Shown here: piece after piece, positions 4,563 through 64,000 of the stretch
Numbering within the stretch: position 1 is the stretch's first letter
Layout: every line of letters starts with the position of its first letter
Assembly (NCBI GenBank): GCA_030704615.1
Contig: CM060734.1
Span: 34,038,001 to 34,102,000 of the forward strand
Reading direction: 5' to 3'
Length of the DNA stretch: 64,000 nucleotides
DNA from: Takakia lepidozioides
Taxonomy: Eukaryota > Plantae > Bryophyta
Translations under genes and position numbers: made by a program
The notes under the pieces: generated by a model
What the model was told of the DNA's origin: nothing
Seen by the model: the letters and a program-made list of their open reading frames with translations, nothing else
Database searches by the model: none

Positions 4563-4769
4563 ATTTTTGGATACTTTCCTGTTGTCATATTGGCAGTATC
4601 ATGTCAGTCACTCCAAACTATCAAAGGTTCACTCGACCAGCTGACTATCAGAATTCAATATGGCCGATTCTGATAAGAGGGAAAAACATGATAGAATGTG
4701 TTGAAGAATGTGCCTTCATTAGCAGTGCCTGATTTTAACAATTGTGTCGCCGCTGCTGCAACTTCCAAG

Positions 4770-6460
4770 CAAATCTGTTAGGGGCCAGACCGCAACCCCT
4801 TAGAAACCATTATGGTTCTAGAAGCTATCATATCTTCATCACCATACTTGTAACAAATCCACCAAGCCATAGCCCACCTAAACTAGAGAAAATGGCAAGA
4901 AGATAGGCCCATTTGAGAACATGTACATCTGGAAACTTGAATGACAAATGCAGATCAATTGCGGGCCCAATCAGAACCCCTTATAAATGTTTATGGATGT
5001 GGAGGCTACATATCTTAATCACCCTACTTGTAATAGATCCACCAAACCATAGCCCACCCAAACTAGAACAGTTGGCAAGAAGATAGGCCCATTTGAGTAC
5101 CTACACGTCCAGAAACTTGAACAACAAGTGCAGATCTGTTGGGGGCCAGACCACAACCCATTAAAAAAAAACTCCAAAGTTTTGGAGGCCACCATATATT
5201 TATCACACTAGTTTTTAGAAATATTCCAAGCCATAGCACACCACAAATGGAGGAATTGGCAAGAAGATAGGCCCATCAAAGTAGCTGAACGTCCGGAAAC
5301 TTGAACAACAAGTGCAGATCTATTGGGGGCCAGACCACAACCTCTTAAGAAAATTCAGATCTCAGTAGGCCACCATAACTTGATTACACTAGTTGTTAGA
5401 AATGTGTCAAGCCATAGCACACCACAATTGGAGCAATTGGCAAGAACATAGGCCCATTTGAGTACCTGAACGTACGGAAACTTGAACAACAAGTGCAGAT
5501 ATGTTGGGGGCCAGACCACAACCCCTTAAATCTCTGGAGGCCATAATATGTTGATCACACTAGTTGTGAGAAATTCTCCAAGCCATAGCACACCACAATT
5601 GGAGCAATTGGCAATGAGATAGGTCCATCTGAATAGTCGAAAGTCCAGAAACTTGAACTACAAGTGCAGATCCGTTGGGGGCCAGACCACAACCCCTTAA
5701 GAAAATTCAGAGCTTAGGATGCCACCATAATTTGATCACTAGTTGTTAGAAATTTTTCAAGCCATAGCACACCACAATTGGAGCAATTGCCAAGGAGATA
5801 GACCCATCTGAATAGTTGAACGTCTGAAAACTTTAACTACAAGTGCAGATCTGTTGGGGGCCAGACCAAAACCCCTTAAGAAAATTCAGAGCTCAGGAGG
5901 CAACCATACTTTTATCACATTAGTTATTAGAAATGTTTCAAGCCATAGTAAACCACAATTGGAGCAATTGGTAAGGAGATAGGTCCATCTGAGTACCTGA
6001 ACGACCAAAAACTTGAACAACAAGTGCAGATCTATTGGGGGCCAGACCAAAACCCCTTAAGAAATTTAGAGCTCAGGAGGCCACCATAACTTGATCACAC
6101 TAGTTGTTAGAAATGTTTCAAGCCATAGCACACCACAATTGGAGCAATTGGCAAGAAGAGAGGCCCATTTGAGTACCTGAATGTCCGGAAACTTGAACAA
6201 CAAGTGCAGATCTGCAGGGGGCCAGACCACAACCCCTTAAGGAATTCCAAATAGCACAAATGGAGGAATTGGCAAGAAGATAGGCCAACCCATCAAAGTA
6301 GCTGAATGTCTGGAAACTTGAACAACAAGTGCAGCTATACTGGGGGCCAGACCACAACCCCTTGAAAATCTTTATGGCTTTGAAGGCTAGCATATCTTCA
6401 TCACCCTACTTGCTACAAATCAACCAAGCCATAGCACACCCAAATTGGAGAAATTGGCAT
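4770..6460. repeat. Tandem array of ~180-bp units (about 9-10 diverged copies)
   Basis: GCAGATCTGTTGGGGGCCAGACCACAACCCC-like anchor recurs near 4775, 4950, 5130, 5315, 5495, 5665, 5845, 6026, 6206 and 6331. Confidence 0.92.
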
Positions 6461-6479
6461 GAAGATGGGGCGCAACATA

Positions 6480-8189: not shown

Positions 8190-9120
8190 TGATAATCTAG
8201 GTCAAGCAATTGAGAACCATTGCTTGCCCCAATACCTGACAACATGATGCCTCAGAAAGAGAAGACACCACCGTGGTCCCAGTGGAAAAACCCATCGCCC
8301 GCTCACACTCGTCAGCATTAGGCTCCACTAATTGCTGCAACTGAGCATCCTACAGGAGGCCAGGTCCACTATCCCGGAAAGCATGCGATCCTGGGAAGCT
8401 GAGCAGTGTAGGTAATGCTGCTCGTGGTTGACCCACCTTGTTGACCACTGCCAAAGGTGAACGGTCATCGCGTCTCACACGTTGAGACTGCCTCCCTGTG
8501 TCCAAAATACTATCCACTATGAGGTGTGCTGGCCGCTGCACCCCATCAAATGCACGCTTAAGCAGTGCAGGTGACATCAAGTTAGTCCACCATAGCCGTG
8601 GGCGATGAGCCCGTGACCCCACTGCCATGACCGGACTTGATGCACTCTGGCCATCACCTTGGCCTGAGAATCGCCCAACAGTGGCACATTCTCCAAGATG
8701 TATACTGGAGATACAACTTGATGAAGTTGTAAGTGGCGCAAAACCCGCACCATCTCCCAAAACAGACCCGACCTTGAGTCTCGCAATCCATTATCATGCC
8801 CAGCTGATGAATGCCCTTGGCAGGGCCAATCTGACACTACCAAATTAATGGAGCCAAACCGCTCCAAATCCTGCGCCCCCAGCAAAAAAAAGTCTGCTGG
8901 CAAGGCTTGCTGATATCCATGAACCGCAAACACTGGTAACAACTCAGGGTACTGTTGCACCAACTGAGCAACATGGCGAAGTGAAACACGTCGTGCAGTC
9001 TCATACCTCTCCACATACAAATAACGTCGAACTCGTACACCTGCCTGTAGCACAGTAGCCAATCCGGTGCTGATCCCGCCAAACAAGTCTAGAAGGCAAA
9101 TGTCTTTATCTGGATACTGC
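8190..9120 (-). pseudogene. DNMT3-like C5 cytosine DNA methyltransferase catalytic domain (frameshift and stops)
   Basis: Motif I LLDLFGGISTG, II YLYVE, IV DWPCQGHS, R..LFWE, VI YILENV, VIII AHRPRLWWTNL (after a frameshift near 8625), IX ECERAMGFSTGTT, X VLGQAM. Confidence 0.92.
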
Positions 9121-9478
9121 CACACAGTACGTGTGGTGTTCAATGGAGACAACTGAGGTGGTCCTGGTGCAATCCCTGCACTCTCCTCCTCTCTTGATGG
9201 TACAAAAACCTCTATCCAGGCTTGTTGTACCCGTCGATCAACAACCCGTTGCAAATCCTTGCTCGTGCCCCACAATGGAGTCTGAGTAACCATGGCAGGA
9301 AACTCCGCCATACTATACATGTCATCATGCTGTCCTGGAGGTGTGTCATCCTTTGAATGAGCATTGCCCTCTAGCAACTCTCCAGGCCAAGTCACTGCAG
9401 CTGTGAATGTTGCTAGTGTCGGCATCTTGCCCCGCTGGGCAACCGCAACTCCTCCTACGTCACAGGGAGCTGCACATG

Positions 9479-9910
9479 CTAGCCCTCCCCTGACTGCCAT
9501 CCAGGCCTATAGGAAGCTGACTCCTCCCAAAAATCCAGGGTGAAGCCCATGGGGTACAACATTGCCCCACCAACCAGGACATCGTACGAGACTGCGTCTG
9601 TCACAATGGCCTTGGCTCGCATCACTGAGCCATCTGTAGGGTGATCCGGCCGTAGTCTAATAGTCAACTCACGTCGTGTCATGCCCCGAGCCTACTCCGA
9701 TCCTCCCAGAGATGTCTGTATTTGGAAATGACAAGGCTCCATATCCACCTCCGTGAGGCCCAAGCCTGCAATAGTAGCTCTGCCTAGCATCAACGGCTGA
9801 GCTCCCGAGTCCAACAAGACCCTCAGTGGGTACCTCTTGCCTGCCGGTCCACTCAAACAGAAAATACCCTCCTGTTTGTCTAACAAGACAACCCCAGGTG
9901 TCACCATGGC
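9479..9910 (-). pseudogene. Retropepsin-type aspartic protease
   Basis: LRVLLDSGAQPLMLG active site and C-terminal YDVLVG motif in the same frame (ORFs 9692..9967 and 9479..9682) across one stop. Confidence 0.85.
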
Positions 9911-20349: not shown

Positions 20350-23344
20350 TTAGATTCTTTCACACTCGTGTGTCTCTTCTATAGATACCTGGTCCATGTC
20401 ATCAGAAAATAATGATAAGTTGAGAGTCTCTGGTCGGAAGGAGTCATGCTTCACTGAGGGGAGCTTCGCTGGAACGTTTGTAGATCCACTCAGCATTTGC
20501 CACACCTCGCGCATTGTAGGTCGAAGAGGCAGAATCCTGTGTGCACAGTCTGGCCACTTTGGCCATGTCCAAGGCCTCCTTCTCAACGACCTCACCTACT
20601 AGCTTGGGATCCACAAGCTTGAGTAGATCTTCAGGCTCCTCACCCACTTGATTCGCCCAATTCATCAGCACAATTTGTTCGGATGGAAGTGAAATGTCTA
20701 AGACTTTCCGACCGCTCAGGAGTTCGAACAGCACAACTCCGAAACTGAACACATCAATCTTCTCCGATATCTGTGAACAAGTCACATACTCTGGAACAAG
20801 TTCATGAACAAGACGATCAATGACAAAAATCTATAGTGGCTCTGAACTGATATTAGTCTGACCTAAATGAGTTCAACCACTAGAATTCATCATGTAACAG
20901 GTCTCTCACAGCAAATATATGTACAATAGGTCGAAGTCTTGTCCCAAGTCTGGAAGTCTTGAAGTCGGTGGCAAGTGCCTTTCAAGCATCCCTAGATACA
21001 TTTAATAGAACATTTGATCATCTGTACTGGTAAGCTTTGAAAAACATACAATGACACTGATCTAGCTGCTCATGCACATGTAGTAGCAAACAGCGAAAAT
21101 GATTTTAGTCAGTATATGAGGCTCTACCTGGTGCGAGATAGCCCACCGTCCCCTCTATGTTAGTTGTCGAGATGTGCGAAACCATGTCATCGCACACAAG
21201 CCTTGAAAGTCCGAAATCAGCAATGCGTGGATTGTTGTCGGCATCCAGGAGGATGTTTCCCGGCTTCATATCACAATGAATAATGCGGTGCTTCAACTCA
21301 TGATGCAAATATGCAAGGCCACACGCTGTTCCAATGGCGATGTTGCGACGCGATTCCCATTCCAGCACATGCCCTTCATTCCTATGCAAAAGATCTGACA
21401 AGCTTCCATTGGGCATGTGTTCGCACACCAAAAGTGGGAACTCGGTATCAATGCAGCAACCCCGTAACATGAGCAAGTTGCGATGTTGCACAGAGCTAAG
21501 GATTGTCATCTCCCTCTTGAAGGAGACTTTGCTTTTATGGCACTTTTGGGTGAGTTGCTTGATGGCTACAACAGACTTGTCTCTCAGCACCCCTCGATAT
21601 ACCGTACCAAACCCTCCTCGGCCAATGATGTTGGCGTCACTGAAATCATCTGTAGCATCCTGGAGCTCCTTATAAGAGTAGAAAGCAGACCGGTTGAAGT
21701 CATCTGAAAGGAGACCGTCGGGGTCCGCTTGTGCACCACCGAATCCGGATCCTTGCTGATCTTTTCTCTTCCAGATAAAAGCCACTAGCCGCGACAGAGC
21801 AACAAAAACAGCAACAGCTCCCAGAGTTGCTCCAATGTACTCCTTCCATTTTGTTTTGCGTCGATGGCGCTGCAGCAGCTCTACAGAGATACCTGACACC
21901 ATTGGCCCCGTCGCATTTGCAAGGTATCCTACGTTAGGATAATTTATCCAGCGTCCTAAGTTACCGGCATAAAGAAACTCAATTTTCAAGAGCCCATCTG
22001 TCACATCCACCTGCACGACCTTTCTGAAAGCTACACAGCTGCCTACTTCTTTTACCACATCTAGTTTCGAAAGAACGAGATTTCCTTGTACCATCACATC
22101 AAAAACACGGTAGCGCGCTGGAAGCTGGGTGAAGACAATCTCTGCAAAGTAGAGACTGACATTATACGTTCCGCTTCGCATGTTGATGCCATAGTAAGCC
22201 ATGTAGACTGGAGCCCATCGCATGGATCGAAAGATCTCCATTTCGTCCGCAGAAACGTTTGAAATTGCTCTTGCAACCGGACCCACCGTGCTGCTTGGAT
22301 AGTCTGGCTTGTCGCTGGAAACTTGCAAGGCCCAGGTGTTAGTTGGATCAACCATCATACCTGTAGATTTGTCAAACGATATTAAATCCGGCTGGAATGT
22401 AACTTTATCGCTATTTGTGACAGAGCTGTAATCACCGACATTAATTGCAAACTGAGAATTATCCCCTGGTGAAGACTGAAAGCCTGACAATACGCTTGAG
22501 TTCGGAATGGGGGTACTGCATGAGTTGAAGAGGGTGTTGTTTGCTATGCGCAAGCTCGAAGCAAGATCACTGGCGCCAGAGCCGAAGCAGTTGAAGGAGA
22601 AATCCGCCTGCAAGTTCGTGGTGTTCCAAGATGCTTTCTTGGTGAAATCCAGAGATCCTGATAGAGAATTGTGAGAGACATCCAGTATGTTTAGGTTAGA
22701 GAGATTAGCACCAATACTATCGGGGATACCACCACTCAAGTTATTGTGACTCAGAGACATAACCTGCAGTCTCGAAAGATTTCCAAGAGATAGAGGGATG
22801 ATTCCTGAAAGATTATTGAAACAGAGAAATAGAGTTGTCAAGTTGGGATTGTTGGTGCCAAACTGTGGTATCTGGTCTGAGAAGTTGTTCCTTGCCAAGA
22901 ACAACTCAGCAAGTGCAGGCATTTCCTCCAAAACAGCTATCCCACCGGAAAGGTTGCTGTTGTCAAGCCTCAAGCTCCATACATCGGTGAGTTTCCGGAA
23001 TGTGCTGGGGATGGGGCCACTGAAGCCATTCGTCAAGGTGCAGCTCCTGGAGAAGGGTTAGACTACCCAACTCTGAAGGTATGAGCCCCGACAAATTGTT
23101 GTTTGACAAGTGAAGTTGCTGAAGGCTGGTCAAGTTTGCAAAGGCTGCAGTGGGAATGACACCCTCCAGCAGGTTGACGTCGAGCCAAAGTATTTTGATC
23201 CACATCCGACGAATTCAACTGCAAGACCAACTGAATGTCCTGAAGAGCGCTTAGTTCGCCAGCGGCTAAAAAGCCGGCTTCCACCAAAGATCTTGGCGGC
23301 AGAAGACAACCGATCCATACACAAAGAGTCATGTTAGTCCACAT
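20350..23344 (-). pseudogene. LRR-malectin receptor-like kinase (LRR-VIII-like architecture), non-RD, three apparent frameshifts
   Basis: Signal-like N-terminus, plant LRRs (LxxLxLxxNxLSGxIP), malectin (YNVSLYFAEI, RVFDV, GPMVSGI), TM, kinase (GRGGFGTVY, VAIK, HCDMKPGN, DFG, GYLAP|EY); intron 20791-21127; frameshifts near 23200, 23035 and 20525. Confidence 0.9.
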
Positions 23345-49200: not shown

Positions 49201-52114
49201 ATTTGGTTGTCCCCTGGAATTTATCAGTGACCAGGGAAGTCACTTCATTAATGAGACCATAGAACTATTGACTAAAGAGTTCATGATTGTGCATAGGAAG
49301 AGTACAACCTATTACCCACAGGGTAATGGGCAGGCAGAGGCCACCAACAAAATACTATGTATTATCTTGGCTAAGATAGTCAATGCAAACAGAATAGATT
49401 GGGATACAAAGCTTCTGACAGCTCTGTGGTCATACAGAACTTCATATAAAGTCACAACCAAGTATATACCATTCCAATTAGTTCATGGTATGAAAGCTTT
49501 ACTTCCAGTGGAGTTCTTGTTACCTACCATGAGAACTGAATGGGGAAGGAGAATGGAATTGGAGGATTCAATTAAAGTCAGGAAACATGAATTATATCAT
49601 GTGGAAGAAGTACGTGCTGATGCAGGAGATAACATGACCAGAATTCAGATGAAAATGAATGATCAATTTGATGAAGGTAAACTGAAAACTTTTAATACGG
49701 GTGATTTGGTTCTGTGGTTGCAGAAGAAGGGAAAAATTAAGGCTTCTAAGCTTAAGTCACCATGGAAAGGACCTTATGTCATACAGAAGATGTATGATAA
49801 CAACACAGTCATGTTATAAACCATTAACAAAGAGATGATGAGAAGAGTCAATGCCAATAAGTTGAAGGGATACAGTGGTATCCATGATAAACCATTGCAG
49901 CACGATTTGCACGTTGAAACACAAAAACAGTCACGGGCTGCGCCGGTGATACCAACGGAGTATGGAGCACTTGTCATTAAGCGAAGCGTGTATGGCCAGG
50001 GCAGGAAGTACAAGTGTCACACAGTTTATCACAGCCCACCACAGTGTCACACAGTCTATCACAGCTCGTCACAGTCTGACACAGCCCAACACAGCCCAAG
50101 CGGGTTACACAGTCCATAGGGTTAGTGACAGGTGGACGTGGGTTAACGTCAGAAAAGTGGCCGACAAGTGAAAGGACAGCTTGGAAGTCAAGCTCGGAGA
50201 ATGTGGGCCACTTGGGCGAAGAACACCGCAGAGCATATATTGCAAAAGTGGGTGTCATCATGCAAGAGGACAAACCGGGCCGTCAAAGTACCTACCCGGT
50301 ACATCAACCAAAACTAATTGTGGGCCCATTCAAGCGTTCAGGGCAGAGGTAACGGAACCCTTTACGAGTACAGAAAAGGGGGACTTTTGCCACATGTGCT
50401 GTCCTAATGGACATTCCAGGTGGGAATGTCCACTGAGGGGGGTAAAATTAAGAAGTTACCTAAGGAGGCAACAGCCAATCAGGAGTGAGAATTTCATGCA
50501 GGTGGTTCCTTCCAAGAAACAAGAACAAGAAATTGGAAGAGTTATGAGCGGAAGAGTCGGGGTGGCTCCAAATAGCCAGTGTCTCGACGGGAGAGGCAAT
50601 CAAAGCTATAGCTTTGTAGCTATGGCGGATATTACAAATTATATGCTCGCTTTACTTCTTACGCAGTGGCACAAGGACGGACGGGTTGAGAGTACATTCT
50701 CTCTCACTTGATACTTGCAAGCTCCGCAGGCTTACACGCACTTACCCGTTCCTTTTTGTGCCAACCATACTTTTATGCTCTACGCCATGCAAGCTTTCCT
50801 AGAGCTATTTCAAACAAGGCCTTCTTTTTGGTCTGGGATGAAGAGAGTAAGGGGAATGGAGGATATCAGGGTGAAGAGCACCAGGATTCTGCAGAAGCAA
50901 ACCATTGCTACACCACAGGCAGTGCAGCTGCTGAGGGAGTTGCGATTGGAAGGGTTGCTATGCAAGGACTGGTCCTTGCATCATCGGAAGTATATGATAC
51001 AATTCATTCAAAACTTTGACCTTCAGACAGGAGTTACACAAGTGCGGGGAGTAGATATAGAGATTACTCCCCAATACTTGCAGCAATTGTTTGAATTGCC
51101 ATCAGGCCGTGTAAATGTGGATGAGCACAGGGCAAGATTGTAGATAGGCAATTTGTTCCAAGAAGGGAGTTTCTTTAAGACTCAGGGATACACTTGCACC
51201 AAGGCCGAGTACCCAGGGTTAAAAGAAGTTGGTCAGGTTCTGAACATTCTGTTTGCCATGAAACAGAACCAACAATACCTTAGCAAATCATTCACGGAGG
51301 AGATACTAAAAGCCTTCAGGTGGGAAGATGTGGCTTGGGCGGACTTAATGTACAATGGTTTGGTGGAAGAGATGAAGCGGTTACACGGCACTGCTGCTAA
51401 GTCTCCAATCGTTGTGTCTGGCCTAGTGATTGTGCAAATTATTCTTGATTCTTGCATACTTGATGCGCGAGAACGTAAGGAGATGGAAGTGTTTGAGGCA
51501 GCAACCACTGCAATTGAGGAGCAGGGCTCTTCACATGGTGAAGGTGGACTGGAGGGGCAACACTAGTCTAAGAGACATAAGCGGAATATGACTGTAGTGG
51601 CAGATCCACTAGCTTCAAGGAAATCGCAAAATGATGTTTCCATAGCTCTTGTGCAGGATGGGGCACAACAGCACAGAGGGCTGTTATTGCTGGAAGCACG
51701 ACCTTTGGAGAGGGAAGAAGAAGTCACTTTGGTACCACAGCCATCACAGCCAGTTGAATCGGTTGTCTCAGAGGTTCCTCAGTTAGTACATGCTGTTGCA
51801 CCATAGCCTATTGCTCTGGAAGGAGAAGGGTTGGACATTCACACTACAGAGCAGGTTGTGGCAGAAATTGAGAAGGGTGACCTTCTCTATGAAAACTCTG
51901 GCTTGGTCAGGGAATCAGTGGTACCAAAGGTGTAGAGTCTGTCTAGGGAAATCCCTGCTGTGCATGTAATATTGGCGGAGGTACCAGGGGTAGAATGTAA
52001 GGGCACTGCAGCACCTGTGGAGGATGAGGTGGTTCAGGAAGAGGATCTGGTGGGAACATGGCCTGAATGGTTGGTGAAACATCACACTGTGGAGGATCAG
52101 GGAGAACAGCAACA
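42365..52114 (+). mobile_element. Ty3/Gypsy copy D, 3'-truncated
   Basis: 5' LTR 42365-43293 (TG mutated to TA), PBS, 5' ORF, gag from 43891, PR 46454.., RT-RH 47093..48790, IN 48794..49819, 3' ORF 50715-52110. Confidence 0.95.
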
Positions 52115-52874
52115 TGGAACTCATAAGCATGGCTTGTTGTGGGTCGTCATGGTGGTGTGGCACATTGTATGGTCATTCTCTGATGAACTGTCTCCAACTC
52201 TGTATGAAGCACCTTCACTTCTTGCAATTTGTCCTCATGCTGCACGTGCAATTGGTATAGCTGCTACTTATGTGCTTCATGCAATTTCCCCTGCTCCAGA
52301 CCCACTTCCATCAGATTCCCCTTTGCTAGCTGCAAGGTGGCCTTTGTGTCCTCCAACTCTTTCTGTAACTTGAGGTTGGCCTCCACATCTACCTTGTTTG
52401 CACACTCAGTGGCAATTCTAGCCTCAAACTCCTGCTTGAGTTCCTCCCTCAAAGCTGCCAATTGTGTAGATGGAACATGGGATTTCACATATGTGCCCAA
52501 CAAATTGAGTGTCCTGCTTATGGAACTCATAAGCATGGCCTGCTATGGATCTTCATGGTGAACTTGCTGCTGTTCTTCCTGATCCTCCACAGTGTGTTGT
52601 TTCACCAACCATTCAGGCCACGTTCCCACAAGATCTTCTTCCTGAACGACCTCATTCTCCACAGGCGCTGCAGTGCCCTTACATTCTACCTCTGGAACCT
52701 CCGCCAAAGGTTTGGGTATTACATGCACAGCAGGGATTTCCTTGGACAAACTCTGCACCTCTGGTACCACTGGTTCCCTAACCAAGCCAGAGTTTTCATA
52801 GAAAAGGTCACCCTTCTCAATTTCTGCTACGACCTGTTTTGTAGTGGGAATGTCCAACCCTTCTCCTTCCAGAG
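52115..52874 (-). mobile_element. Inverted fragments of the Gypsy 3' ORF, forming a fold-back with 51.8-52.1 kb
   Basis: ORFs 52543..52857 and 52264..52536 on minus match 51.8-52.1 and 37.9-38.1 kb on plus. Confidence 0.85.
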
Positions 52875-53124
52875 GAGGTTAGCTATTTCATGAGCATGAG
52901 CGGCATGAGCGGCATGAGCGGAGTAGTAAGACAATCGGTTTTCATGAGCAGAAGTACAAATTTTGAAAATAAAAAACAATAAAAAACAATAAACATAATT
53001 TAATGCAATGTGTCAGGAAAAACAAATATATTATTCGGCCCATTGAAGGGAAAATTGTAGTTTTGACAGTTGTGCTCATGATATTTCGTCTTCCGCTCAT
53101 GCCAATTCCCAGCGACATGTGCAA

Positions 53125-53560
53125 ATATGGCGCCGAATTTCGCGGTAATAGGGTCCGTAACCTGAAAAAACGGCGACGTATTTCGCGGTAATAGGTCTCT
53201 CTGGCGAAAAATGGTGCCGAATTCCGCGGCTATAGGTCCCCTCATGACAGGTAATTCGGCGCCATTTTTCCAGTGCATGTTCGGACTTAGCCAGTTTTCG
53301 GCGCAAAATAGGGAAATTCGGCGCCATTTTTCCAGACACTGTACCAGTGCATGTTGGGACTTAGCCAGTTTTCGGCCCAAAAAAGAGAAATTCGGCGCCA
53401 TTTTTCCAGACACGGTACCAGTGCATGTTGGGACTTAGCCAGTTTTCGGCCCAAAAAAGAGAAATTCGGCGCCATTTTCCCAGACACAGGTACCAGTGCA
53501 TGTTGGGACTTAGCCAGTTTTCGGCCCCAAAAAGAGAAATTCGGCGCCATTTTTCCAGAA
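53125..53560. repeat. Subterminal repeats including ~74-bp tandem units (x4)
   Basis: CCAGTGCATGTTGGGACTTAGCCAGTTTTCGGC at ~53270, 53344, 53418, 53493; core AAATTCGGCGCCATTTT. Confidence 0.92.
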
Positions 53561-53713
53561 ATGGCCCCACAACTGCTTCTGTTGGATCTCAGTTTGAATG
53601 GAATATTGCCTCATTCCAGGAGTTTTGGGGTGCATTTCATTACACTGCAAAAAAAAGTCTGATACAGCAAAATGCAATTGAAAATATCCATATGGAGGAT
53701 TCCCTTTGCCCCA

Positions 53714-56700
53714 TCAATGATTTCTGGAATCCCTAAGGAGGAGTTTGTGCAGCTCGTTCACGCTCAACGCCGGTGCATGAATAAAGTCATCAATAGTCAC
53801 GTTCATCCTCAACCTCTTCAGGTAAATGTAATACAGATGCTTGCACGGATAATACTTCGAACCCTTCTTTGCTTCCATCAACGAGAAGTCCGTACAATTG
53901 CAAGTCGGCTCCACTCCAATCGTAATTGTGTATACATCGTCGCGTACAGCCGAGCCGGCCGTTGCCATCCGATACACACGCCCAAGGCCGGGTGGGGGTA
54001 CGTCCACGGAGCTCTGAATAGTGCAAGCCATCCCAAGAGCATTGGCAATCCGAGTCTCATTCAACTTGTTGGGAGGGTGTCGTCTCTTCACTCTTCCGAA
54101 TCGCATTGTGGGATGTGCAGAATTGTCCAATCCGTCTCTACTGGACCGAGCAGTCTGCAATGGCTGGGTCTGAGGAACCGGAAATGCGTGGGCCGGGATG
54201 TCTGTGCGTTGCACCATTCGAAATCCTGCTGCAGATAGAGCATCCGCCTCATTCTGAGAGAGGCTGCAACCCGGTGCAACAGGCCAGACGCCCGGAGGCT
54301 CCGGCATTCCCTGAATCCCGTACTTGGGCTTGCCAAATACACAGGTCATTATGTCGTGCCTACAGAACCAAAATGTCTGCGTTGTGGCGTGAGCAAATGT
54401 GGGAGTCAAAAATCTGCCGCTGAAACAAGGTGCAGGTACAGCACCGTGTGGGTTCCTCCGAATCATCTCACCACAGCGTGCTCTCGTATCCACCCGGATG
54501 GCGCAGCACTTCCCTCGAAATGCCGGCAATGTCCTCGCAATTCTCCACTGTGACTCCGACACTCTTGTCTCCACAATGGGAATGTTGTACTGCTTTACTA
54601 CAGATGGCTCGTTATGTTGCCGGGGCACGCGCCCTGTGCTCAAAGGAGATGGCGATCTTGAACGTGCAGGACTTGCGGTGCTCGACGAGACCTCCTCGGG
54701 CAACATCACCGGACCACGAGGGAGCGTGCGAATATTCTTGTCAGCTCGCCATGAATCCTCTTCTCCGCCAGGTGCCTCGTCAAGTCTTCGTCTCACTGGA
54801 CGGGTATGAACATCTCCTTCCAAATGTTGGCCTCTTCGCAGCAATGGCGTGTCCCGAAGGCCCTCTCGCAAGGCCGCCGCCCACTTCCGAGGATTCTTCG
54901 ATCTAGAGGCAGTCCGCATCAGCATTTCCTGCCTGTCCGGCCCCAAGCCCCACTGTTTCCCTTTCAAGAACTCGTTGTACCTGCATTGCTGCATAATTGA
55001 CCTCACAATGTCCTCCGTTGTGGCAGTGAGGATGTCCACCAGATGCGCCGCAGAGGAGGCACGCCAGGAAGAGTGCACTGATTCGGCCATGTTTGTCGTG
55101 GGCATGTCGGTGTCGGAGTCGAGACACATTTCCTGCACAAGCACATGTTGAGGTTACAAGCAAGTTACAAATATGGCCAAGAATAATATTCAACGGGACG
55201 CGAATTCGTGCAACTCACCTCCCGCATATAGTCGCCGAACTGGAGGAAACGATAATGCCACCATGCTAGCCAACTGACCATTGCTCCCTCGTCTGATTTC
55301 CTTACAGCACCTGACGATGTCCACCAAGCCCGTATACATGCAAACTGTGTCTCTGCATCATCCAAGGTGGGAGCGCGCTTCCACGCAAGGCACATGGAAC
55401 GGTGCTCCTCTCTGAAATCTGGCGCCACGAGCCTGGTTGTGTACTGCGAAAGGCTCTGCAGAAAATGGAACCCACAAGATCTCTCCTTGCCTTCCATGGG
55501 AACATTGGGGTCTTGCCCGTACACCCTTCGGATGGCAGCCCAATTTGCTTGTGCGTTGTCCGCCATGAAACCACGGAAATTGGGAGGGGGCAATCCCGCC
55601 TTGGCCATCTGTTCGTTTATTCCCTGCCAAAGAAGCATCTCCGATTGTGTGTCCTCTCCTTTCATCTCACAAATAGCAATTGTCATTAGCATCCTGCAGT
55701 GGGTGTCGTAGACATGTGCACCCATTGTCACCCACTGGTGATTTGTAATTCGCTTGATATGGTCGAACATGACCCAACTGTTTGACAAGTCCCCACTCGT
55801 CATCCTGTCGACCAGTTCGACGCCGCTGCCAGGTCCACACGTGGACATTTTGAATACGAAACAACGATCTGCCTCAGTCCCTTGTCCTGGAAACCTACTT
55901 CCATGAATGTAGTCATATCCACATCGTCGCTTCACCTCCAGAATGGAGTGCATATCCGAGCCACGCCCAATTTTCTGTTTGCATGAGACAATGTGGTTTC
56001 GGACATTCGGTGAACATACGTGGGACACCGACTCCAGCAATGCCTCCATTTCCTTCTCATCGAGAGGAACTCTATCGGAGCCGTCTTCCGACATAATTCT
56101 GGCCAATGCCATCTTATGGGCGGCTTGGAGCTGTATCTGTTTGGGTTTGGCACCCGGTCTCAACTTAACCTCCTCCTGAACGAGCTGCTCTGCCTCGTGG
56201 GCAGCCTCCCGCGAGTTCCCCCTCGCCAATTTGTGACAATGGGAACCAACGTGTATGCAAGCTCGGGTGAGGTCAGGGAAACGGTGCAACACATAGAACT
56301 GCTTGGCATTACAAACAGACATGCAGTGTGGTGGTTCTTTGCAATGCGCACACTTAAATGTGGAGTTCGGAACCTTCTCCTGAGCTCGAAATGGTTGATG
56401 AGCTGTGCCTGTCCAATCGGTCTCGTTCCTGTGACCTCTGGATTTAAAGTGGAAGCAAGTTGGGGAGAAACACCGCAACGCGCCCGCACAAACAACGTAG
56501 CGCACCCGCACACCATCGAGCATCTTCATGCTGGTGGTTTTGGTAACGCACCAAGGATGACCGTCATGTTTTCTATCCATATCTGTCAACATTCCGGACG
56601 CCCTCGAGTAGTCCGCCCGAGGAGGGAACTCAAAGAAGATATTACCGTCGACGTCGGCGGGAAGGCATGTAACCGATTTAATTGCGAACTTGCTGTAGTC

Positions 56701-57306
56701 CAGCCCGGCCAGCTCCGACCGGTGTCCCTCCAGGTGAAGCCCTCGCAGAATTTCAAGAATAGATCGAACTGCGGTGCTCGTGCTGGGAATATGACTCCCT
56801 CCTCCACTGACGTCCATTGAGGACTTGCCTGATCTCCAGGACGACCTCGGAACTTCCATGACCTCGTCTGAGTCGGACAGGTTGTGAACAACCCGGTTCT
56901 CGCTCGTCTTCATGGATGGGTTCGGCTCTGGATTTACTTCGTTGCGGACTTCTCTCTTTGAGGTAGCCACTCTCTGATTCGCGGATTGTTTCGTGGAAGG
57001 CGCCAGGATAGAAGGTGCATTTGGCGGGCAAATGAAGTCCCCAACAGCCCTGTATATGACGCTGTCCGATGGTGGAACTCGCCATTCCCTGCCATCGCCG
57101 AAATCATCGTGGAGCACAACAATACTCTCGACAACAAGGCCGTTTGAGTCCTTCCTTTCCTCCTCCAAAAAAACCGACCCCGGTTTCAGGTGGTATCGAA
57201 CGCACAGATATTTCTCCATCACCCGGCAGATGTCCCCTCTGCACGGAAATGAAGCTCTATGCTCGTGAGGAGGGCAGTACACTGTAGCGCTCGGGTTTTC
57301 CGCCAT
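53714..57306 (-). CDS. MULE-type DDE transposase, ~1,168 aa, with N-terminal GCM-like zinc domain and C-terminal SWIM finger; two exons (57306-55219, 55132-53714)
   Basis: Phase-0 GT-AG intron 55133-55218 joins ORFs 55165..57321 and 53714..55144; WVMFDH (D1), FMADNAQA (D2), CGFH (CxxH), PTTNMAESVH (E); CAGALRC..CAHC..HVGSHCH; SWIM CNC...PCKH; no stops. Confidence 0.85.
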
Positions 57307-57539
57307 GGGAGATGTGCACACAAGACTGCCAGGATGGCGTGCGGGGAAGCTCCCTGGTAGAAGGGGGATGCAGCGATGGGAAGGAATGCGGTGCCGATTT
57401 GTCCGAGCGACGAAGCCTGATCCAAATCCAGGGAGCCAACTATCTCAAAAATCCACAGTCAGAGTGTTAATGAACCTTGTCTCCGGAATGCGGCCCCTGG
57501 TCTTTGCGCAATAACTGCCAACGGTATGCAGTCAGAAAG

Positions 57540-58640
57540 TGGGGGCCGTCCGGATGATGTCGGCTGAAGGGGAGAAGCCGGCACCGTGCCGTCACATTAC
57601 TACCCCCGAATGGAAATTCGGCACCCAATATCCAACAGGGGCCGCACGGATGAAGTCGTCTGGGGCAGAGATGCCGGCACCTGTCCGACAGAGAACATCC
57701 CCCGGATGGAAATTCAGCGCCGAATTTCCATTCGGATCCCCCAAAGGAAGTCCTGTCGGGGGGTCAGGCCGAAAACTGGCCGACATAAAAACCTCCGCGG
57801 ATGGAAAAACGGCGCCGAATTTCCATCCGAGGCCTTTCGGATGCAGTCGGCTCGGGGGAAAGGCCGCCATCTGGCCCTCACATTACAACCCCCGGACGGA
57901 AATTCGGCACCGAATATACAACAGGGGAAGCCCGGATGAAGTCGCCTCGGGCGCAGAGGCCGGCGCGTGTGCGACAGAGAACATCCCCTGGATGGAGATT
58001 CGGCGCCGAATTTCCATCCGGGCCCCCCCAAAGGAAGTCGTGTCGGGGGGTCAGGCCGAAAACTGGCCGGCATAAAAACATCCCCAGATGGAAAAACGGC
58101 GCCGAATTTCCATCCGGGGCGGTTCGGATGCAGTCGGGGAGGGGGGAGAGGCCGGCACCTGGCCGTCACATTTCAACCCCCGGACGGAAATTCGGCACCG
58201 AATATCCAACAGGGGACGCCCGGATGAAGTCGCCTCGGGCGTAGAGGCCGGCACGTGTTCGACAGAGAGCATCCCCTGGATGGAGATTCGGCGCCGAATT
58301 TCCATCCGGGCCCCCCCAAAGGAAGTCGTGTCGGGGGGTCAGGCCGAAAACTGGCCGACATAAAAACCTCCCCAGATGGAAAAACGGCGCCGAATTTCCA
58401 TCCGGGGCCGTTCCAATGCAGTCGGGGAGGGGGGAGAGGCCGGCACCTGGCCGTCATATTTCAACCCCCGGACGGAAATTCGGCACCGAATATCCAACAG
58501 AGCGGCGGAGAGGCCGGCACCTCTCCGACAGAGACCATCCCCCGGATGGAAATTCGGCGCCGAATTTCCATCGGGGCCCCCTCAAAGGAAGTCGTAAAAA
58601 CCTCCCAGAATGGAAAAACGGCGCCGAATTTCCGTCCGAG
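57540..58640. repeat. ~288-bp tandem units (almost 4 copies)
   Basis: GAAATTCGGCACC at ~57613, 57900, 58187, 58475; each unit holds several CGGCGCCGAATTTCCATCC motifs. Confidence 0.92.
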
Positions 58641-58759
58641 GCTGTTCCGATTTGCCTCTAGCAGTCAAGGATTCCAAGAAAAACGTGTCTACAAGTGCAC
58701 TTCAGCCACAAAACAAACAGTTAGGTTTGTTTTTCTCCGAAAAATCAATCGGACACGCT

Positions 58760-59400
58760 CAGAATTACCTGCAGGAAGGTAATTCAGCGCTTCGAAATAC
58801 CTGGCAAATGGAAATTCGGCGCCGAATATCCATACGCCAGCGATCCGACTTACCTGCTGGATGGAAATTCGGCGCCGGATTTCCATCCATCCGGGATTCG
58901 AATTACCTGCTGGATGGAAATTCGGCGCCGGATTTCCATCCATCCGGGATTCGAATTACCTGCAGGATGGAAATTCGGCGCCGGATTTCCATCCATCCGG
59001 GAGTCGAATTACCTGCAGGATGGAAATTCGGCGCCGGATTTCCATCCATCTGGGACTCGAATTACCTGCAGGATGGAAATTCGGCGCCGGATCTCCATCC
59101 ATCCGCTCTCCGCCCAACCTTGCGGATGGAAATCCGGCGCCGGATTTCCATCCATCCGCCTCCGAATTACCTGCTTGAGGGAAATTTCGCGCGCCGCCCT
59201 ACCTGCGCGGATGGAAATCCGGCGCCGGATTTCCATCCATCCGCTTCTGAATTACCTGCGTGAGGGAAATTTGGCGCGCCGCCCTACCTTGCAGGATGGA
59301 AATTCGGCGCTGAATTTCCATCCTGCTGCGCTCCGAATTACCTGCAGGATGGAAATCCGGCGCCGGATTTCCATCCTGCAGCGCTCCGAATTACCTCTAC
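58760..59400. repeat. 53-bp tandem units, each with a ~30-bp near-perfect palindrome
   Basis: GAATTACCTGCAGGATGGAAATTCGGCGCCGGATTTCCATCC at 53-nt spacing (58900, 58953, 59006, 59059), about 11 copies including degenerate ones. Confidence 0.92.
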
Positions 59401-59585
59401 GTTGGAAATTTCGGGCCGAGTTCCGTCGATTTTCATCCGACATGGAGGGCTTCATCCGACATTTAATTGCGCAGTTGGGCAATAAATGTCCACCGCCGTC
59501 CGTTTTCATTCGGGCTGGCGACACATGGCTTCCTGGATACGTACCCTAAATCTGATGCTAATCTTGGCTTAACATGCTATTCGAG

Positions 59586-62500
59586 GCATGTACCCCAAAA
59601 ACGGAAGATCTTTTTCCATTTTGGCTGGGACTTATGCCGCCTGAAGGGCGTGGCTCTCCTGAGAGAGACCTCACATCCAGACCGCGGCGGAAGTTGAAAG
59701 CTCTGTACTACGGACGACGGCCAATCTCTCGCATGGCCAAACTGAAGCTCCAGCAGGAGATTCCAGTGTCTTGCTCACAACCCGCGCCAACTGAAGCCGA
59801 GTACTCTCAGGCAAGCCACTTCTGCTTTCGCTTTGTTCGATTTGTTTTTTGCTTTCGCTTTCGCTTTCGCTTTGTTGCCTCGCTTTGTTTTTGCATCTTC
59901 ATCCTGGCTTCGCTGGATGAGTGAACCTTAGATAGTTGAGTGAACCTTAGATTGTTTGCAATGCGTGTGCAAATCCGGCAGCTCTGGAGAAGGCTGCTTG
60001 TGCATGTCATTCTCAGGCAATGGTTGCATTTGTTTTCATTGTTGTTGCATGGCTCTCCATACTTCCTAAACTTGTTATGTTTTCATTTTTGTTACACGAT
60101 TGTTGCTATGGTGGTTGCGCTGCTCGTTGCGATGCTGGTTTTTGCACCGATGTTGGTTCTCACGATTTTTGGGAATGACAGAGTGACGACGAGCCCGACA
60201 CGCTGGTGGTATCATCGACAGCTCCAACTCATCGCATGTTTGAATCGCCCAACTTGGGGCGAGAGGGCAAACTTAAACCTTTTGTTGGTGGACGGGAGGA
60301 CTTGCAACGAGAGTACGACAGAATAGGCATTGGGGAGGTTGGTGCAGGCGGCATGGCAGGTGAAGGGCGTGAGGACATGAGGACAGCAGATCCGGCAATG
60401 GAGGTTGTTGATGCACATGCAGTAGGGCCCGCCCACGCAAAGAAAAAGAAGAAAGCTAAGCACATGCAATCCCCGGCGAGAGAGCCGTCACGGGCTGCAG
60501 GGGGAGTGAGCAGTGCGCGCGAGGGTGTCAGTTCGCCTCAATCAAAGGTGGTCGTCCTGGAGGGCTCCCCTGCTGCTAGCCCTAGTAAGAAACAGAAAGC
60601 CCGTGAGAGGGCAAAAGAGAGGGCAAAAGAACAGACGAGACAGAATGCTAGCCAGGAGGAAAGAGAAAAGGCCACTGAAGAGGCCAGGGGTGCCCAAATG
60701 ACAGATGCCAATGTAAGCGAGGGACGCACAGAGACGGTGGATCCCTCCAAGACACCACAGAGAGGCAGTAACACACCGGTTAGACCATCGCGGGCAAGAG
60801 CAGCCCCTGCAATTACCCATACGGTGGAGAGTGGAGGAGAGGAAAGAACACCAGAAAGAGCACGGATTGTGCAAGTTCGAGGTGAAGCCAGGGAGAGGGC
60901 AGTAGAGACGGGGAGAGTGCTGGAGGTGGTTTCGCAGGTGGCTGACCCTGTTGAGGAGGACGACAGGGAGCTTTCTGACCAGGATGACATCCTCCCGGAC
61001 ATCCCCAGGCCCCAAACCCGGAGCATACAGGCTGGATTTGGCGGTCCTGGTGGGCTGCCGGAAAACCCCTCTGCAGCAGACGTCATGTCGGAGGCGGATA
61101 TGAAGTTGGCCGCTGCCAAGATGTTGGAGGCAACCCACAGCAACATTGGCAGGGTGCTGGGGGGCATGGTGTACCCGGCCAAGCTTCGAATTCCCCTTTG
61201 CCGCTTGGTGTCATTGCAGGTGGTGAGACCTGCCCTCCCAGGCGATATCGACAAGCTGAAATTCTCTTTCCGGGATGGATATCGAATGGGGTCTGCCGCG
61301 TTTTACGTTTCCATTGAGAACGACCACGGAGCTTCCCGTGCCCACACTTCCGATGAGGTGGACAAATGGGGTCCCCATTGGCAAACGCGAAATGAGGAGT
61401 TCGAGAGATCGATTGCTAGTGATCCTCTTTTCCAGCACTTGTCCGGTAAGATGTTCTACGTGTGGGACGGCAATCATCGCCTCCTGGCATGGATGGAGCA
61501 CATTGCCCAAGCCCACCCCAACGACCTCGATTGGCATTTCGCCGTGGATTGTGTTGTGCTGAAGGTTGCGGGGCCCAAAGATCGCAGTCTTCTCAAAGCT
61601 GCAATGGCGGACATCAACTCGTAAGCTACAACGCCTCTCGCTTTTGGACTTTGAATTTGGAAGTCATTTCATTGCGAATCCTCATATATGATGAAAATTC
61701 CCATTTCAGTATTGTTTGATGGAAATGTGGCACTGCAGGGTGACTGAGAATGCCTTCATTGCCACCAACTTGTCCCATATGCTCTTCCGAGTGAAGGATG
61801 TCGGGAAGCAGGGGGTGCAAGAGTTTGCCAATTCCCTCAGTGCCGACCTCCTGCGCAAGTCGGAGGCAAAGGCAGACAGAACCTGGTATAGGCTGAGCGT
61901 CGACGCCATGGTGGACTACATATTTCGGGTAAAGCTCCTGACAGTTTTGTTGAGCTAATCTGTCTCTCCTCCCCCAATAGAAGAAAATGTCTTCACCGTG
62001 ATTTCTAATCTCCTCCCCCAATAGAAGAAATTGTGTTGAGCAGGATCTCTAATCTTATGTGCGCATTCTTGACAGACGAAAATACAGCAGGATTTGGCAC
62101 ATGCGCGGAGGTTCTACATGGAGTCAGAGGAGAAGAATCCAACCCTCCCGGCACTCGAATCGTATGTCAAAGCTGCGGAGGTGAGGGCCCGCATAAAGTA
62201 CAAGTCGCGGATGGTAAAGTACGTGGCCATAGCTGATCCCGCCCTTGGTGCCGACTTTCTGGTGGAGGTGGGGAAGCACTACTCTCGCGCTCTGAAGCCC
62301 ACGATGACATTGGAGAAGCTCCATCGTCTAGCCACATCCTGTGTGGATGCAACAGAAAAGGTGATACATTCTTAACCAAATTGTGGTGGCAACAACTCCT
62401 TTTTGTGGTGTTTGGCGCTTACGAATATGCTGGGTGGTTGGACAGACCCGGTGGCTCCAAATCTGGAATGGTTCCCAAAGTACCAGGACATGTGGAGCTT

Positions 62501-64000
62501 CCCCAAACCGGACAAACTCTCTGACCCCACATTCGACATGTGGATGAACCGCATGACATGGTGGTTTCAGGTACTTCCCCACGCTTCGTTTGGGGCTTCT
62601 ACTCTAGTAGGGGGTGGATTCATTGTATTTTTTCAGGAAAGCGATCTGATGGAGAATCTCCACAGGTGACGACGAATGCGCAAGAGCAGCTGGACACACA
62701 AGCACATCAGTTCAAGATGGAGATATCTCCTGCAGCAGAGAGCCTACGTGACTATGTGACGAGGTACTTTCTGCTCTACAAAACCAACCTATTCTTTCGG
62801 GAGATAGCAGATGCTCGCCGGAGCCACGAGTTCACCGACCAGCCGAACGCGGACAAAGCAGCAATGCGCCTTCTGTACAGGTACATACGCGCTGCCTTTC
62901 TTTCAAGTCCTTGCATTTTAGGATGTTAGAGGCCTCATGTGGTGTTAGGGAAAATGGCGCCGAATTTCCAGTCAGGGCTCCGAAAATGGCTACGTCCCTA
63001 GACTGGCTGGCCCTGAACTGGAAATTCGGCGCCATTTTCCAATTCGAGGCCCTATTGCCGTTCAGGGACTTGGCCATTTTCGGGCTAAGTCCCTTGACTG
63101 GCTGGCCCGGAACTGGAATTTCGGCGCCATTTTCCAGTTCCAGGCCCTATTGCCGTTCAGGGACTTCGCCATTTTCGGGCTAAGTCCCTAGACTGGCTGG
63201 CCCTGAACTGGAAATTCGGCGCCATTTTCCAGTTCCAGGTCCTATTGCCGTTCAGGGACTTAGCCATTTTCGGGCTAAGTCCCTAGGGTGGCTGGCCCTG
63301 AACTGGAAATTCGGCGCCATTTTCCAGTTCCAGGCCCTATTGCCGTTCAGGGACTTAGCCATTTTCGGGCTAAGTCCCTAGGGTGGCTGGCCCTGAACTG
63401 GAAATTCGGCGCCATTTTCCAGTTCCAGGCCCTATTGCCGTTCAGGGACTTAGCCATTTTCGGGCTAAGTCCCTAGGGTGGCTGGCCCTGAACTGGAAAT
63501 TCGGTGCCGTTTTCCAGTTCCAGGCCCTATTGCCGTTCAGGGACTTAGCTATTTTCGGGCTAAGTCCCTAGGGTGGCTGGCCCTAAACTGGAAATTCGGC
63601 GCCATTTTTCCAGTTCTAGGCCCTATTGCGGTTCTGGGACTTGGCCATCTTCGGGCCAAACCGGGAAAAATGGCGCCGAATTTCCAATTCAGGGCTCCCA
63701 AGATGGCTAAGTCCCTAGGGTGGCAGTCACCGAAAACCGAAATTCGGCGCCATTTTTTCATTTCTAGGCCCACTCACATCCGCCCCAACCTGGGAAAATG
63801 GTGCCGAATATGCATTTCAGGGACCTCATTGTGTTTTTCATGAATGCAGGTACTGCAAGTTCTCCCTTTTGGAGAAAGGTCATCTGTCTTTCGAGCCACC
63901 ATTCTTCCTGGCATGGAGGAACCCTGGGGCCGACTCCATGCACACTGACGATATTGTGAAGGATCTGGAACATTTGCGTGATTGCCCTTGGTATGTGGAC
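59586..64000 (+). CDS. Multi-exon gene with a ParB/Srx-like N-terminal-fold domain (incomplete; runs off window)
   Basis: Frame-consistent exons 60182-61620, 61739-61928, 62076-62360, ~62403-62570, 62666-62880, 63850-64000; probable upstream exon ending 59810 (GC donor); IPLCRL...VRP...DIDKLKFSF...FYVWDGNHRLLAW fits the GxxRxxA motif; start codon and 62360-62403 junction unresolved. Confidence 0.7.
62950..63810. repeat. 95-bp tandem array (~8 copies) inside intron 62881-63849
   Basis: GGCTGGCCCTGAACTGGAAATTCGGCGCCATTTTCC repeated at 95-nt spacing (ORF echoes at 63288, 63383, 63478). Confidence 0.92.

Follow-up and report, generated by a model that had tools for sequence, protein, structure and literature searches.

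In the last 11.1 kb of a 64,000-nucleotide stretch of the Takakia lepidozioides genome (contig CM060734.1, positions 34,038,001 to 34,102,000; the whole stretch is called the window here), a transposable element carries a transposase gene and, head-to-head with it, a spliced accessory gene whose product has a ParB-like fold. The non-coding DNA of this element contains many copies of a palindrome, 22-36 bp in length, that is built around the core TCGGCGCCGA. Taken together, the findings described below lead us to favor, on balance, the idea that the palindromes are sites for the element's own ParB-fold accessory protein, which would protect or activate the element. The sites lie in four arrays:

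53120 to 53560, no strand assigned: array A, eight asymmetric sites, three inverted and then five direct, with a 74-bp period and RGCC-N7-GGCY in each unit
57542 to 58640, no strand assigned: array B, 12 near-symmetric sites before the transposase start, in 96-bp subunits of a 288-bp higher-order unit
58791 to 59409, no strand assigned: array C, 11 sites before the ParB-fold gene, with perfect palindromes of up to 36 bp and periods of 53 bp and 85 bp
62940 to 63815, no strand assigned: array D, 11 asymmetric sites with a 95-bp period, in the predicted intron 62881-63849

When at most one mismatch is allowed, AAATTCGGCGCC matches the window 51 times, compared with an expected 0.15, and all of these matches, which collapse to 38 sites, fall within 53129-63751. 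None of 100 shuffles equaled this count, and there are zero such matches in the remaining 52.9 kb of the window. Allowing two mismatches yields 47 site centers, 44 of them in the element and three, weak and one-sided, in the first 52.9 kb. The original prediction, made from the sequence alone, had placed the motif in every large non-coding interval and had seen none in coding exons. Both statements hold for the bulk of the sites, as 42 of the 44 are non-coding (8, 12, 11, and 11 in arrays A to D, respectively), with exons making up about 5.9 of the 11.1 kb. The exceptions are two exonic sites (55424 and 62250), each one-sided with two mismatches, and about 750 bp at 59430-60180, preceding the long ParB exon, in which the scan at up to two mismatches found no palindrome site. 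The stretch at 57540-59400 contains 23 sites, and the palindromes do lengthen between the two genes as had been claimed, with perfect palindromes of 28, 30, 30, and 36 bp centered at 58559, 59139, 59224, and 59362. Sites between the transposase and the ParB-fold gene are near-symmetric; in arrays A and D, one half of the site is an A/T-tract variant. The most frequent half-site is GGAAATTCGGC, which accounts for 28 of the 84 halves.

Tandem repeats were located in each of the places where the arrays had been predicted: 53270-53559 (74 bp, 3.9 copies), 57542-58500 (where the 288-bp unit consists of 96-bp subunits), 58791-59196 (53 bp, 7.6 copies) and 59110-59409 (85/53 bp), which together span 58791-59409, and 62988-63656 (95 bp, seven copies). 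The further claim that the spacers are unrelated is correct for the 53/85-bp array, which is the sole array without relation to the others, and incorrect for arrays A, B, and D. The 74-bp unit and the 96-bp subunit have 14 exact bases in common, in inverted orientation, and the 74-bp and 95-bp units have a 20-base stretch in common (p=0.0005 in each case, the floor of 2000 shuffles). The stretches common to the 74-, 96-, and 95-bp units contain a second palindromic motif, RGCC-N7-GGCY, of which there are 14 exact copies in the element versus 0-1 for other gap lengths from 3 to 11. This motif is placed in arrays A, B, and D (53289-53526, 57767-58452, and 63072-63657), sitting midway between the main sites in array D, and may be either a second binding site or a leftover of array ancestry.

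Because arrays A, B, and D have spacer sequence in common, they are of common origin. This is a point in favor of a neutral explanation, in which the arrays are minisatellites seeded by a hairpin-forming palindrome, the shared cores reflect descent, and the phasing of the sites is a by-product of slippage. Long palindromes are known to promote slippage, and in old copies the sites show the decay expected of any methylated DNA. However, the 22-bp site of array B is about three times better conserved than the spacers, with 16 of 198 positions diverged (8%) versus 156 of 666 (23%; p=5e-7). The same tendency is seen in array C (3/132, or 2%, versus 20/186, or 11%; p=0.004) and array D (5/154, or 3%, versus 46/511, or 9%; p=0.016, with edge copies inflating the spacer count). 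Better conservation of motif than of spacer was one of the points on which the original prediction had staked its case, and it is found in arrays B, C, and D and not in array A, which is discussed below. Furthermore, the periods of 53, 74, 85, 95, and 96 bp correspond to 5.02, 7.01, 8.06, 9.0, and 9.1 turns at 10.55 bp per turn, with four periods no more than 0.1 turn from an integer. The 16 distinct spacings between neighbors within arrays give a mean cosine of 0.72 (p=2e-4 versus spacings jittered by up to 15 bp, with the helical period scanned from 10.3 to 10.7 and with three long inter-cluster gaps and the two exonic sites excluded). Finally, a core with three CpGs persists across clades despite the turnover of spacers and arms. 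Thus, the neutral explanation is already disfavored, and it is the least probable of those considered here.

More evidence has come from relatives of the accessory protein. A metagenome scan yielded 108 loci in which the ParB domain was confirmed, and the best 80 of these 108, with 28-48% identity, collapse to 42, most of them AT-rich, decayed, plant-like contigs. All 4096 palindromic 12-mer cores were ranked blindly over these 42 loci, with the window left out, in a manner that tolerated C>T decay and required palindromic flanks. The top core is CTCGGCGCCGAG (120 occurrences versus 0 in shuffles, in 27 loci) and the second is TTCGGCGCCGAA (93 versus 1.2, in 23 loci); the best unrelated 12-mer core reaches 22. 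When merged, there are 138 sites in 27 of the 42 loci, and their positions follow the ParB domain: 114 of the 138 lie within 2 kb before it, three in the next kilobase upstream, and 19 at +1 to +5 kb, with no sites in the domain's own kilobase, two in the 112 kb that lie more than 3 kb upstream, and none in the 75 kb beyond +5 kb. Sites are present in 25 of the 32 related loci that have at least 1 kb upstream. The transposase was detected in five of the 42 loci and is head-to-head with the ParB gene in all five. Three of these loci also contain sites, 20 in total, and every one of the 20 is located in the 1.5 kb preceding the ParB domain, with none ahead of the transposase start. The original prediction had named either the ParB-like protein or the zinc domain of the transposase as the reader of the motif; these positions speak for the former and not for the latter, for which a different, 9-bp repeat at the element end is a better candidate target.

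A comparison of the divergence of motif and protein across relatives, which had also been proposed, reveals that the core is kept in loci whose ParB domains are only 28-48% identical, and that the arms are clade-specific. The arms of the relatives are GCCTCCAACT, CCAAGCTTCT, GAGCTACT, GAGCAACT, and AGCA, and that of the window is GGATGGAAA. These arms track the clades of a tree built from 39 of 43 ParB rows (L043, L080, L054, and L037 were dropped as too short), in which the window protein sits on its own long branch. Such an agreement is no proof of co-evolution, because common descent alone explains it. Cores in the 75-bp and 127-bp arrays of L001, a locus with 41% identity and little decay, are intact.

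A near-constant core beside a ParB domain that diverges to 28-48% would also be explained by a host reader. In this model, a host transcription factor, most likely E2F, reads the core, and the arrays are host enhancers that have been amplified and that activate both transposon genes in dividing cells; the arms either hitch-hike or serve a second protein. The GGCGCC core is an E2F homodimer site for which A/T flanks are preferred, as reported for mammalian systematic evolution of ligands by exponential enrichment (PMC4686757). Four A/T bases lie directly beside GGCGCC in 15 of the 42 sites. In the relatives, however, the bases flanking the hexamer are a conserved TC..GA rather than A/T, and the canonical E2F/DP consensus overlaps just one of the 42 sites. 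In addition, the sites are palindromes of 22-36 bp with clade-specific arms, occur in introns and past the transposase gene as well, and adjoin the ParB gene, not the transposase, in relatives. A host factor of this kind is considered rather unlikely but is the main rival explanation.

The accessory gene, which is the proposed source of the reader, has the following parts:

60179 to 61620, + strand: long exon, a low-complexity N-terminal part and then a ParB/Srx-fold domain (about 61160-61620) with WDGNHRLLA
61739 to 62880, + strand: four further predicted exons encoding a helical region, matched exon by exon to related loci L001 and L002 and to the homologue profile
63850 to 64000, + strand: predicted next exon, cut by the window edge, with in-phase splice sites and a weak profile match (E=0.77)

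For the long exon (60179-61620), no start codon was found. Because Pfam and PDB sequence searches name neither the transposase nor the accessory protein, the ParB call rests on the fold. The structure predicted for the residues encoded at 61,061-61,621 has a predicted local distance difference test score of 90.6 (42 sequences), and in a VIA-align comparison, the top 11 of 48,161 chains are all of the ParB/Srx fold, including KorB (Z 8.1, root-mean-square deviation [rmsd] 2.4, 90 residues) and PadC (Z 7.9). A Z near 8 is middling, yet the list of matches is coherent, and Foldseek is concordant but weak. The domain also matches phrog_1033 (E=0.019), its GNHR, which is of the GxxRxxA type, is nearly invariant across 42 aligned sequences, and the ParB-domain family comprises 804 clusters at E<=0.001. 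The model of a 1191-amino acid (aa) homologue is confident at residues 135-700, which include the helical region, and alignments of full ParB proteins with this homologue reach weakly into that region (5k5d, Z 6.6, rmsd 4.1, 210 residues; 1vz0, Z 4.8, rmsd 4.8, 167 residues).

The named homologues come from Riccia and Adiantum and, along with a malectin-leucine-rich repeat kinase gene in the window, point to a seed-free land plant as the probable host. One of those from Adiantum, P0140, has an FCP1/NIF-like phosphatase domain at its end (PF03031, E=2e-12). In a protein atlas, the clusters nearest to the ParB domain plus helical region (residues 170-660 of P0171, from Riccia) are fungal DUF3723 proteins, at a score of 0.89, which is under the 0.9 mark and thus a lead only; a literature search pairing DUF3723 with ParB found nothing. 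Viral contigs contain no ParB-domain relative and no exact 22-bp site, and prokaryote genomes gave two loci with just 21-23 residues matched, which we do not regard as pointing to a close bacterial source. No ParA-like frame is present among the scanned frames in the visible 11 kb of the element.

Splicing of the gene is seen in a related copy. The GT-AG intron at 62571-62665 is missing from a contig of a run guessed to be RNA, in which 62,570 is joined to 62,666 in a copy that is about 91% identical; two runs guessed to be RNA give patchy cover, by diverged copies only. Since the gene continues past array D, albeit with a weak match to the last exon, array D would be intronic. Relative to contigs of three other runs, exon 62446-62570 of the window copy is one base short at about 62,485, a difference that results in an early stop. 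Because the missing base lies in a G run, an assembly error is possible; the ParB gene of this copy is thus either frameshifted or mis-assembled. At 61965-62055, there is a 44-bp intronic duplication that is particular to this copy, which the contig of run X6 skips.

The best structural match of the domain, the plasmid repressor KorB, raises another possibility: that the accessory protein does bind the sites, as a self-repressor or copy-number limiter rather than as an anti-silencer. KorB silences from a distance, and the sites in the element flank both promoters and show C>T decay. However, other ParB folds score on a par with KorB, and the family is abundant, young, and CpG-rich. As many as 72 variant contigs are present at one position, an 1881-nucleotide contig of another sample differs from the element by 10 letters, and two assemblies of 2-4 Mb contain 60% and 37% of the element's words. 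The ratio of observed to expected CpG (CpG o/e) is 0.67-0.86 in the exons of the element and 1.1 between the two genes, compared with 0.67 in a host kinase gene and 0.12-0.39 in Gypsy copies. Thus, the element is host-gene-like and not Gypsy-like in this respect, a result that fits anti-silencing, and self-repression is judged improbable.

The transposase gene and the visible end of the element bear on whether the transposase itself could be the reader:

52875 to 53110, + strand: left terminus, inserted in a Gypsy fragment, with CATGAGC repeats; candidate transposase-binding end
53714 to 55132, - strand: transposase exon 2, with a putative catalytic E (TTNMAES, 55099) and a C-terminal SWIM finger
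55219 to 57306, - strand: transposase exon 1, with a Cys/His-rich N-terminal region, D (MFDH, 55770), D (MAD, 55566), and CxxH (55476)

The two exons, which are open throughout and encode about 1,170 residues, are separated by an in-phase GT-AG intron of 86 nucleotides (55133-55218) that is predicted from the sequence. We take the D, D, CxxH, and E to be the triad of Mutator and Mutator-like elements (MULEs), in line with known MULE motifs, and on these motifs the transposase is called Mutator-like. The MFDH, MAD, and CxxH are kept in all homologues that reach those alignment columns, among 12 homologues with 35-41% identity. The SWIM match (PF04434, E=0.0038) is under the curated cut-off, Pfam MULE gives no match for the window exons or 10 homologues, and a PDB sequence search gives none. 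An assignment to Sola, at which a GAG start had hinted, was dropped because the transposase shows the D..D..CxxH..E pattern and a SWIM finger.

For MULEs in general, the DDE triad is described as having a CxxH placed between its second D and its E, and short subterminal tandem repeats of 9-15 bp are described as frequent (PMC5225508). The left end has the latter feature, with 3.1 copies of a 9-bp unit at 52894-52921 together with direct and inverted copies of CATGAGC. This heptamer is found at 52889-52943 on the + strand and at 53074 and 53095 on the - strand, and just two further copies are present elsewhere in the window. The edge itself is placed at 52875, as contigs of the Gypsy family depart from the window past 52874 and contigs of the element start at 52875 (four runs). 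The terminal 21-mer occurs once in the window, the right end of the element being beyond the window edge. A sister family has approximately the first 45 terminal bases (52875-52919) in common with the element and then diverges, as seen by loose ends past 52919 in three runs; it is possibly mobilized by the same transposase.

Alternatively, the palindromes could be internal transposase-binding repeats, contacted by the zinc-finger or SWIM domain, with a role in transpososome assembly or regulation. Array A is indeed subterminal, at 250-700 bp from the end, array B precedes the transposase start, and subterminal repeats are frequent in MULEs according to the source cited above (PMC5225508). However, the end has its own 9-bp repeat, of a size typical for MULE subterminal repeats (PMC5225508), and this CATGAGC repeat is a better candidate for transposase binding than is the palindrome. 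Furthermore, the distance to the known end exceeds 4 kb for 34 of the 42 sites, the relatives have their sites alongside the ParB gene, and a ParB gene with repeat arrays is also reported beside a Plavaka transposase (bioRxiv 10.1101/2025.02.11.637652). Binding by the transposase thus seems very improbable.

The accessory protein may have another activity. Full-length family members in Riccia (P0171, 1207 aa) end in an N6/N4-methyltransferase-like domain, with an E value for PF01555 (5e-5) that is under the cut-off, a match to PHROG methyltransferases (E=9e-7), and an atlas score of 0.94; locus L002 also ends in such a domain (E=0.021). If the domain order of L002 and P0171 applies, the corresponding part of the window copy would lie about 1 kb past the window edge. 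The catalytic motif is altered in the homologues (DLPT, DMPS, DVPF, and DIPE). The methyltransferase region of the full-length homologue model is low-confidence, and the domain call rests on the sequence matches.

In the model that is favored here, a dimer of the accessory protein would contact the site with the helical region that follows the ParB domain, one conserved surface recognizing the invariant core and another, clade-specific surface recognizing the arms. Dimers would then line up along a single face of the helix, or bridge arrays by looping, and would spread by means of the ParB fold, acting as a nucleotide-gated clamp or an oligomerization switch. Tandem duplication would multiply the sites as in VANDAL elements, with whole-turn periods being retained. 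The bound protein would keep the two divergent promoters, the introns, and CpG-rich DNA open, and the amino-methyltransferase-like domain of the family would either lay an N4-methylcytosine or N6-methyladenine mark or merely shield the DNA from host 5-methylcytosine (5mC). Because the gene of this copy is frameshifted or mis-assembled, the protein would be supplied by sister copies. A more specific version of this model posits a ParB/parS-like system belonging to land-plant transposons themselves, with a two-part code in which an ancient, CpG-rich 10-bp core together with family-specific arms at whole turns loads a nucleotide-gated ParB clamp, the methyltransferase-fold domain spreads a non-5mC mark or shield, and each family recognizes only itself. 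This version is speculative, and we doubt it more than we believe it. If true, it would mean that sequence-specific anti-silencing evolved in plants a second time, independently, and from phage-type parts.

Several observations weigh against the idea that the palindromes are sites for a protective accessory protein. In array A, there is no significant difference between site (2/66) and spacer (9/156; p=0.5). Some of the spacings in the window derive from one another, and the phasing in relatives is weak (mean cosine 0.27, p=0.009 with related loci counted and 0.07 on distinct values), with one related clade having a 51-bp period. In the window, the central hexamer has 11 changes, nine of which are C>T or G>A. 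Most related loci have T or A in place of each C or G of the core in 35-53% of sites, and the CpG o/e is mostly 0.1-0.4; consequently, old copies have not been protected. The high CpG of the element may merely mean that the family is young or recently acquired. No helix-turn-helix was confidently identified in the helical region of the homologue, either in the model or by structure alignment. Of the 32 related loci with at least 1 kb upstream, seven have no site, including L007 and L011, which are the two best ParB matches among long loci (44-45%). When 12 related loci in which core sites are few or absent were scanned de novo for palindromes, no motif emerged that could take the place of the core. 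Finally, a host factor accounts for a core that is nearly invariant among clades no less well than does a fast-evolving system of the VANC type.

The system can be compared with VANDAL/VANC, in which Arabidopsis MULEs carry 8-9-bp motifs that are described as non-palindromic, present in one orientation, different among families, and tandemly amplified in introns and upstream regions (PMC5735166). As in VANDAL, there is a MULE with an accessory gene and motifs that are dense in its own non-coding tandem repeats (42 of 44 sites here). In contrast, VANC has DUF1985/DUF287 rather than a ParB fold, and the palindromic core is constant here, with the arms alone varying. Neither DUF1985 nor DUF287 was matched by Pfam in the window exons or in 27 homologues that include full-length ones. 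Thus, of the self-recognition between protein and motif that had been predicted by analogy with VANC, the self-recognition is indirectly supported by the conservation of the motif, its phasing, and the retention of the core at 28-48% ParB identity, and the analogy fails in that the protein lacks VANC domains.

Closer parallels are found in algae. In Bostrychia, Plavaka elements are reported to carry a ParB-like gene, PAG3, with adjacent tandem arrays of inverted repeats, and self-binding and self-modification have been proposed; related cassettes are also reported in Chondrus Mutator elements (bioRxiv 10.1101/2025.02.11.637652). Both cases involve a DNA transposon, a ParB-like accessory gene, and neighboring inverted-repeat arrays. 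However, PAG3 is described as ParB plus a 2-oxoglutarate oxygenase, another gene, PAG2, encodes the methylase, and the Bostrychia transposase is of the EnSpm/Plavaka type. In the present family, ParB and a methyltransferase-like domain are in one gene, the transposase is Mutator-like, and the host is a land plant; the repeats are compared by description and not by sequence. In Ectocarpus, Sola1-1_Ec32 encodes a 1104-aa protein with ParB-like and N4C/N6A methyltransferase parts on the strand opposite to the transposase, and self-binding and self-modification are again proposed (PMC12477816). The ParB-like gene opposite the transposase is a common feature, and P0171 (1207 aa) is of the same architecture and size, a likeness drawn from the description. 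Unlike the element in the window, Sola1-1_Ec32 has a Sola1 transposase, and the main text of that paper mentions no palindrome array.

In phage, fusions of ParB to an N6/N4-methyltransferase (PF01555) are described as common (bioRxiv 10.1101/2025.10.10.680097; PMC4738411). As with bacterial ParB/parS and KorB, the present element combines a ParB-CTPase fold, a motif of the GxxRxxA type, and clustered palindromic sites. Unlike bacterial ParB, the accessory protein is encoded by a spliced eukaryotic gene without a ParA in the visible 11 kb, and the similarity is at the level of the fold (9-19% identity). By analogy, then, the system would work like the algal proposal and VANDAL without being a VANC system, and its resemblance to ParB/parS would be at fold level.

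The idea of a self-binding ParB cargo is already in print for red and brown algal transposons. What is new is the occurrence in a land-plant Mutator element, a core that stays constant while the arms vary, phasing at whole turns, and the fact that the sites are separate from the terminal repeat. Literature searches, whose coverage lay outside subscription journals, found the two algal papers as the only relevant ones, with no land-plant case, no constant core, and no phasing. According to the authors of the Bostrychia work, no transposon system other than VANDAL/VANC is known to bind its own DNA and modify it (bioRxiv 10.1101/2025.02.11.637652). The algal ParB cargo genes constitute a proposal without a defined site, whereas here a candidate site is defined to the base and split into core and arms. 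Because the site is defined, the family is abundant with near-identical copies, and a related copy is spliced, the proposal is directly testable with one protein and one oligonucleotide, and the natural arm variants can serve as specificity controls. If true, it would extend ParB clamp biology into plant chromatin and could provide a programmable module for DNA targeting or anti-silencing.

The remainder of the window contains other repeats and genes. The stretch 23400-52874 holds several copies of a single Gypsy family, nested or fragmentary and present in either orientation, which are 87-98% identical and carry 10/30-bp coding tandem repeats. Just left of the element end, 51814-52114 and 52565-52874 form an inverted duplication (92%) of a Gypsy stretch. 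Beside the Gypsy cluster is a fragment of a host malectin-leucine-rich repeat receptor kinase gene (21105-23057, - strand). A GC-rich stretch at 8-14 kb looks like a separate mobile element. It contains a frame at 8577-9506 (- strand) with a match to C-5 cytosine methyltransferase (PF00145, E=2e-9), which brings to mind methylase-carrying retrotransposons. Finally, a tandem array of about 181 bp in eight copies (4769-6470, 81% identity) is nucleosome-sized and without the palindrome.

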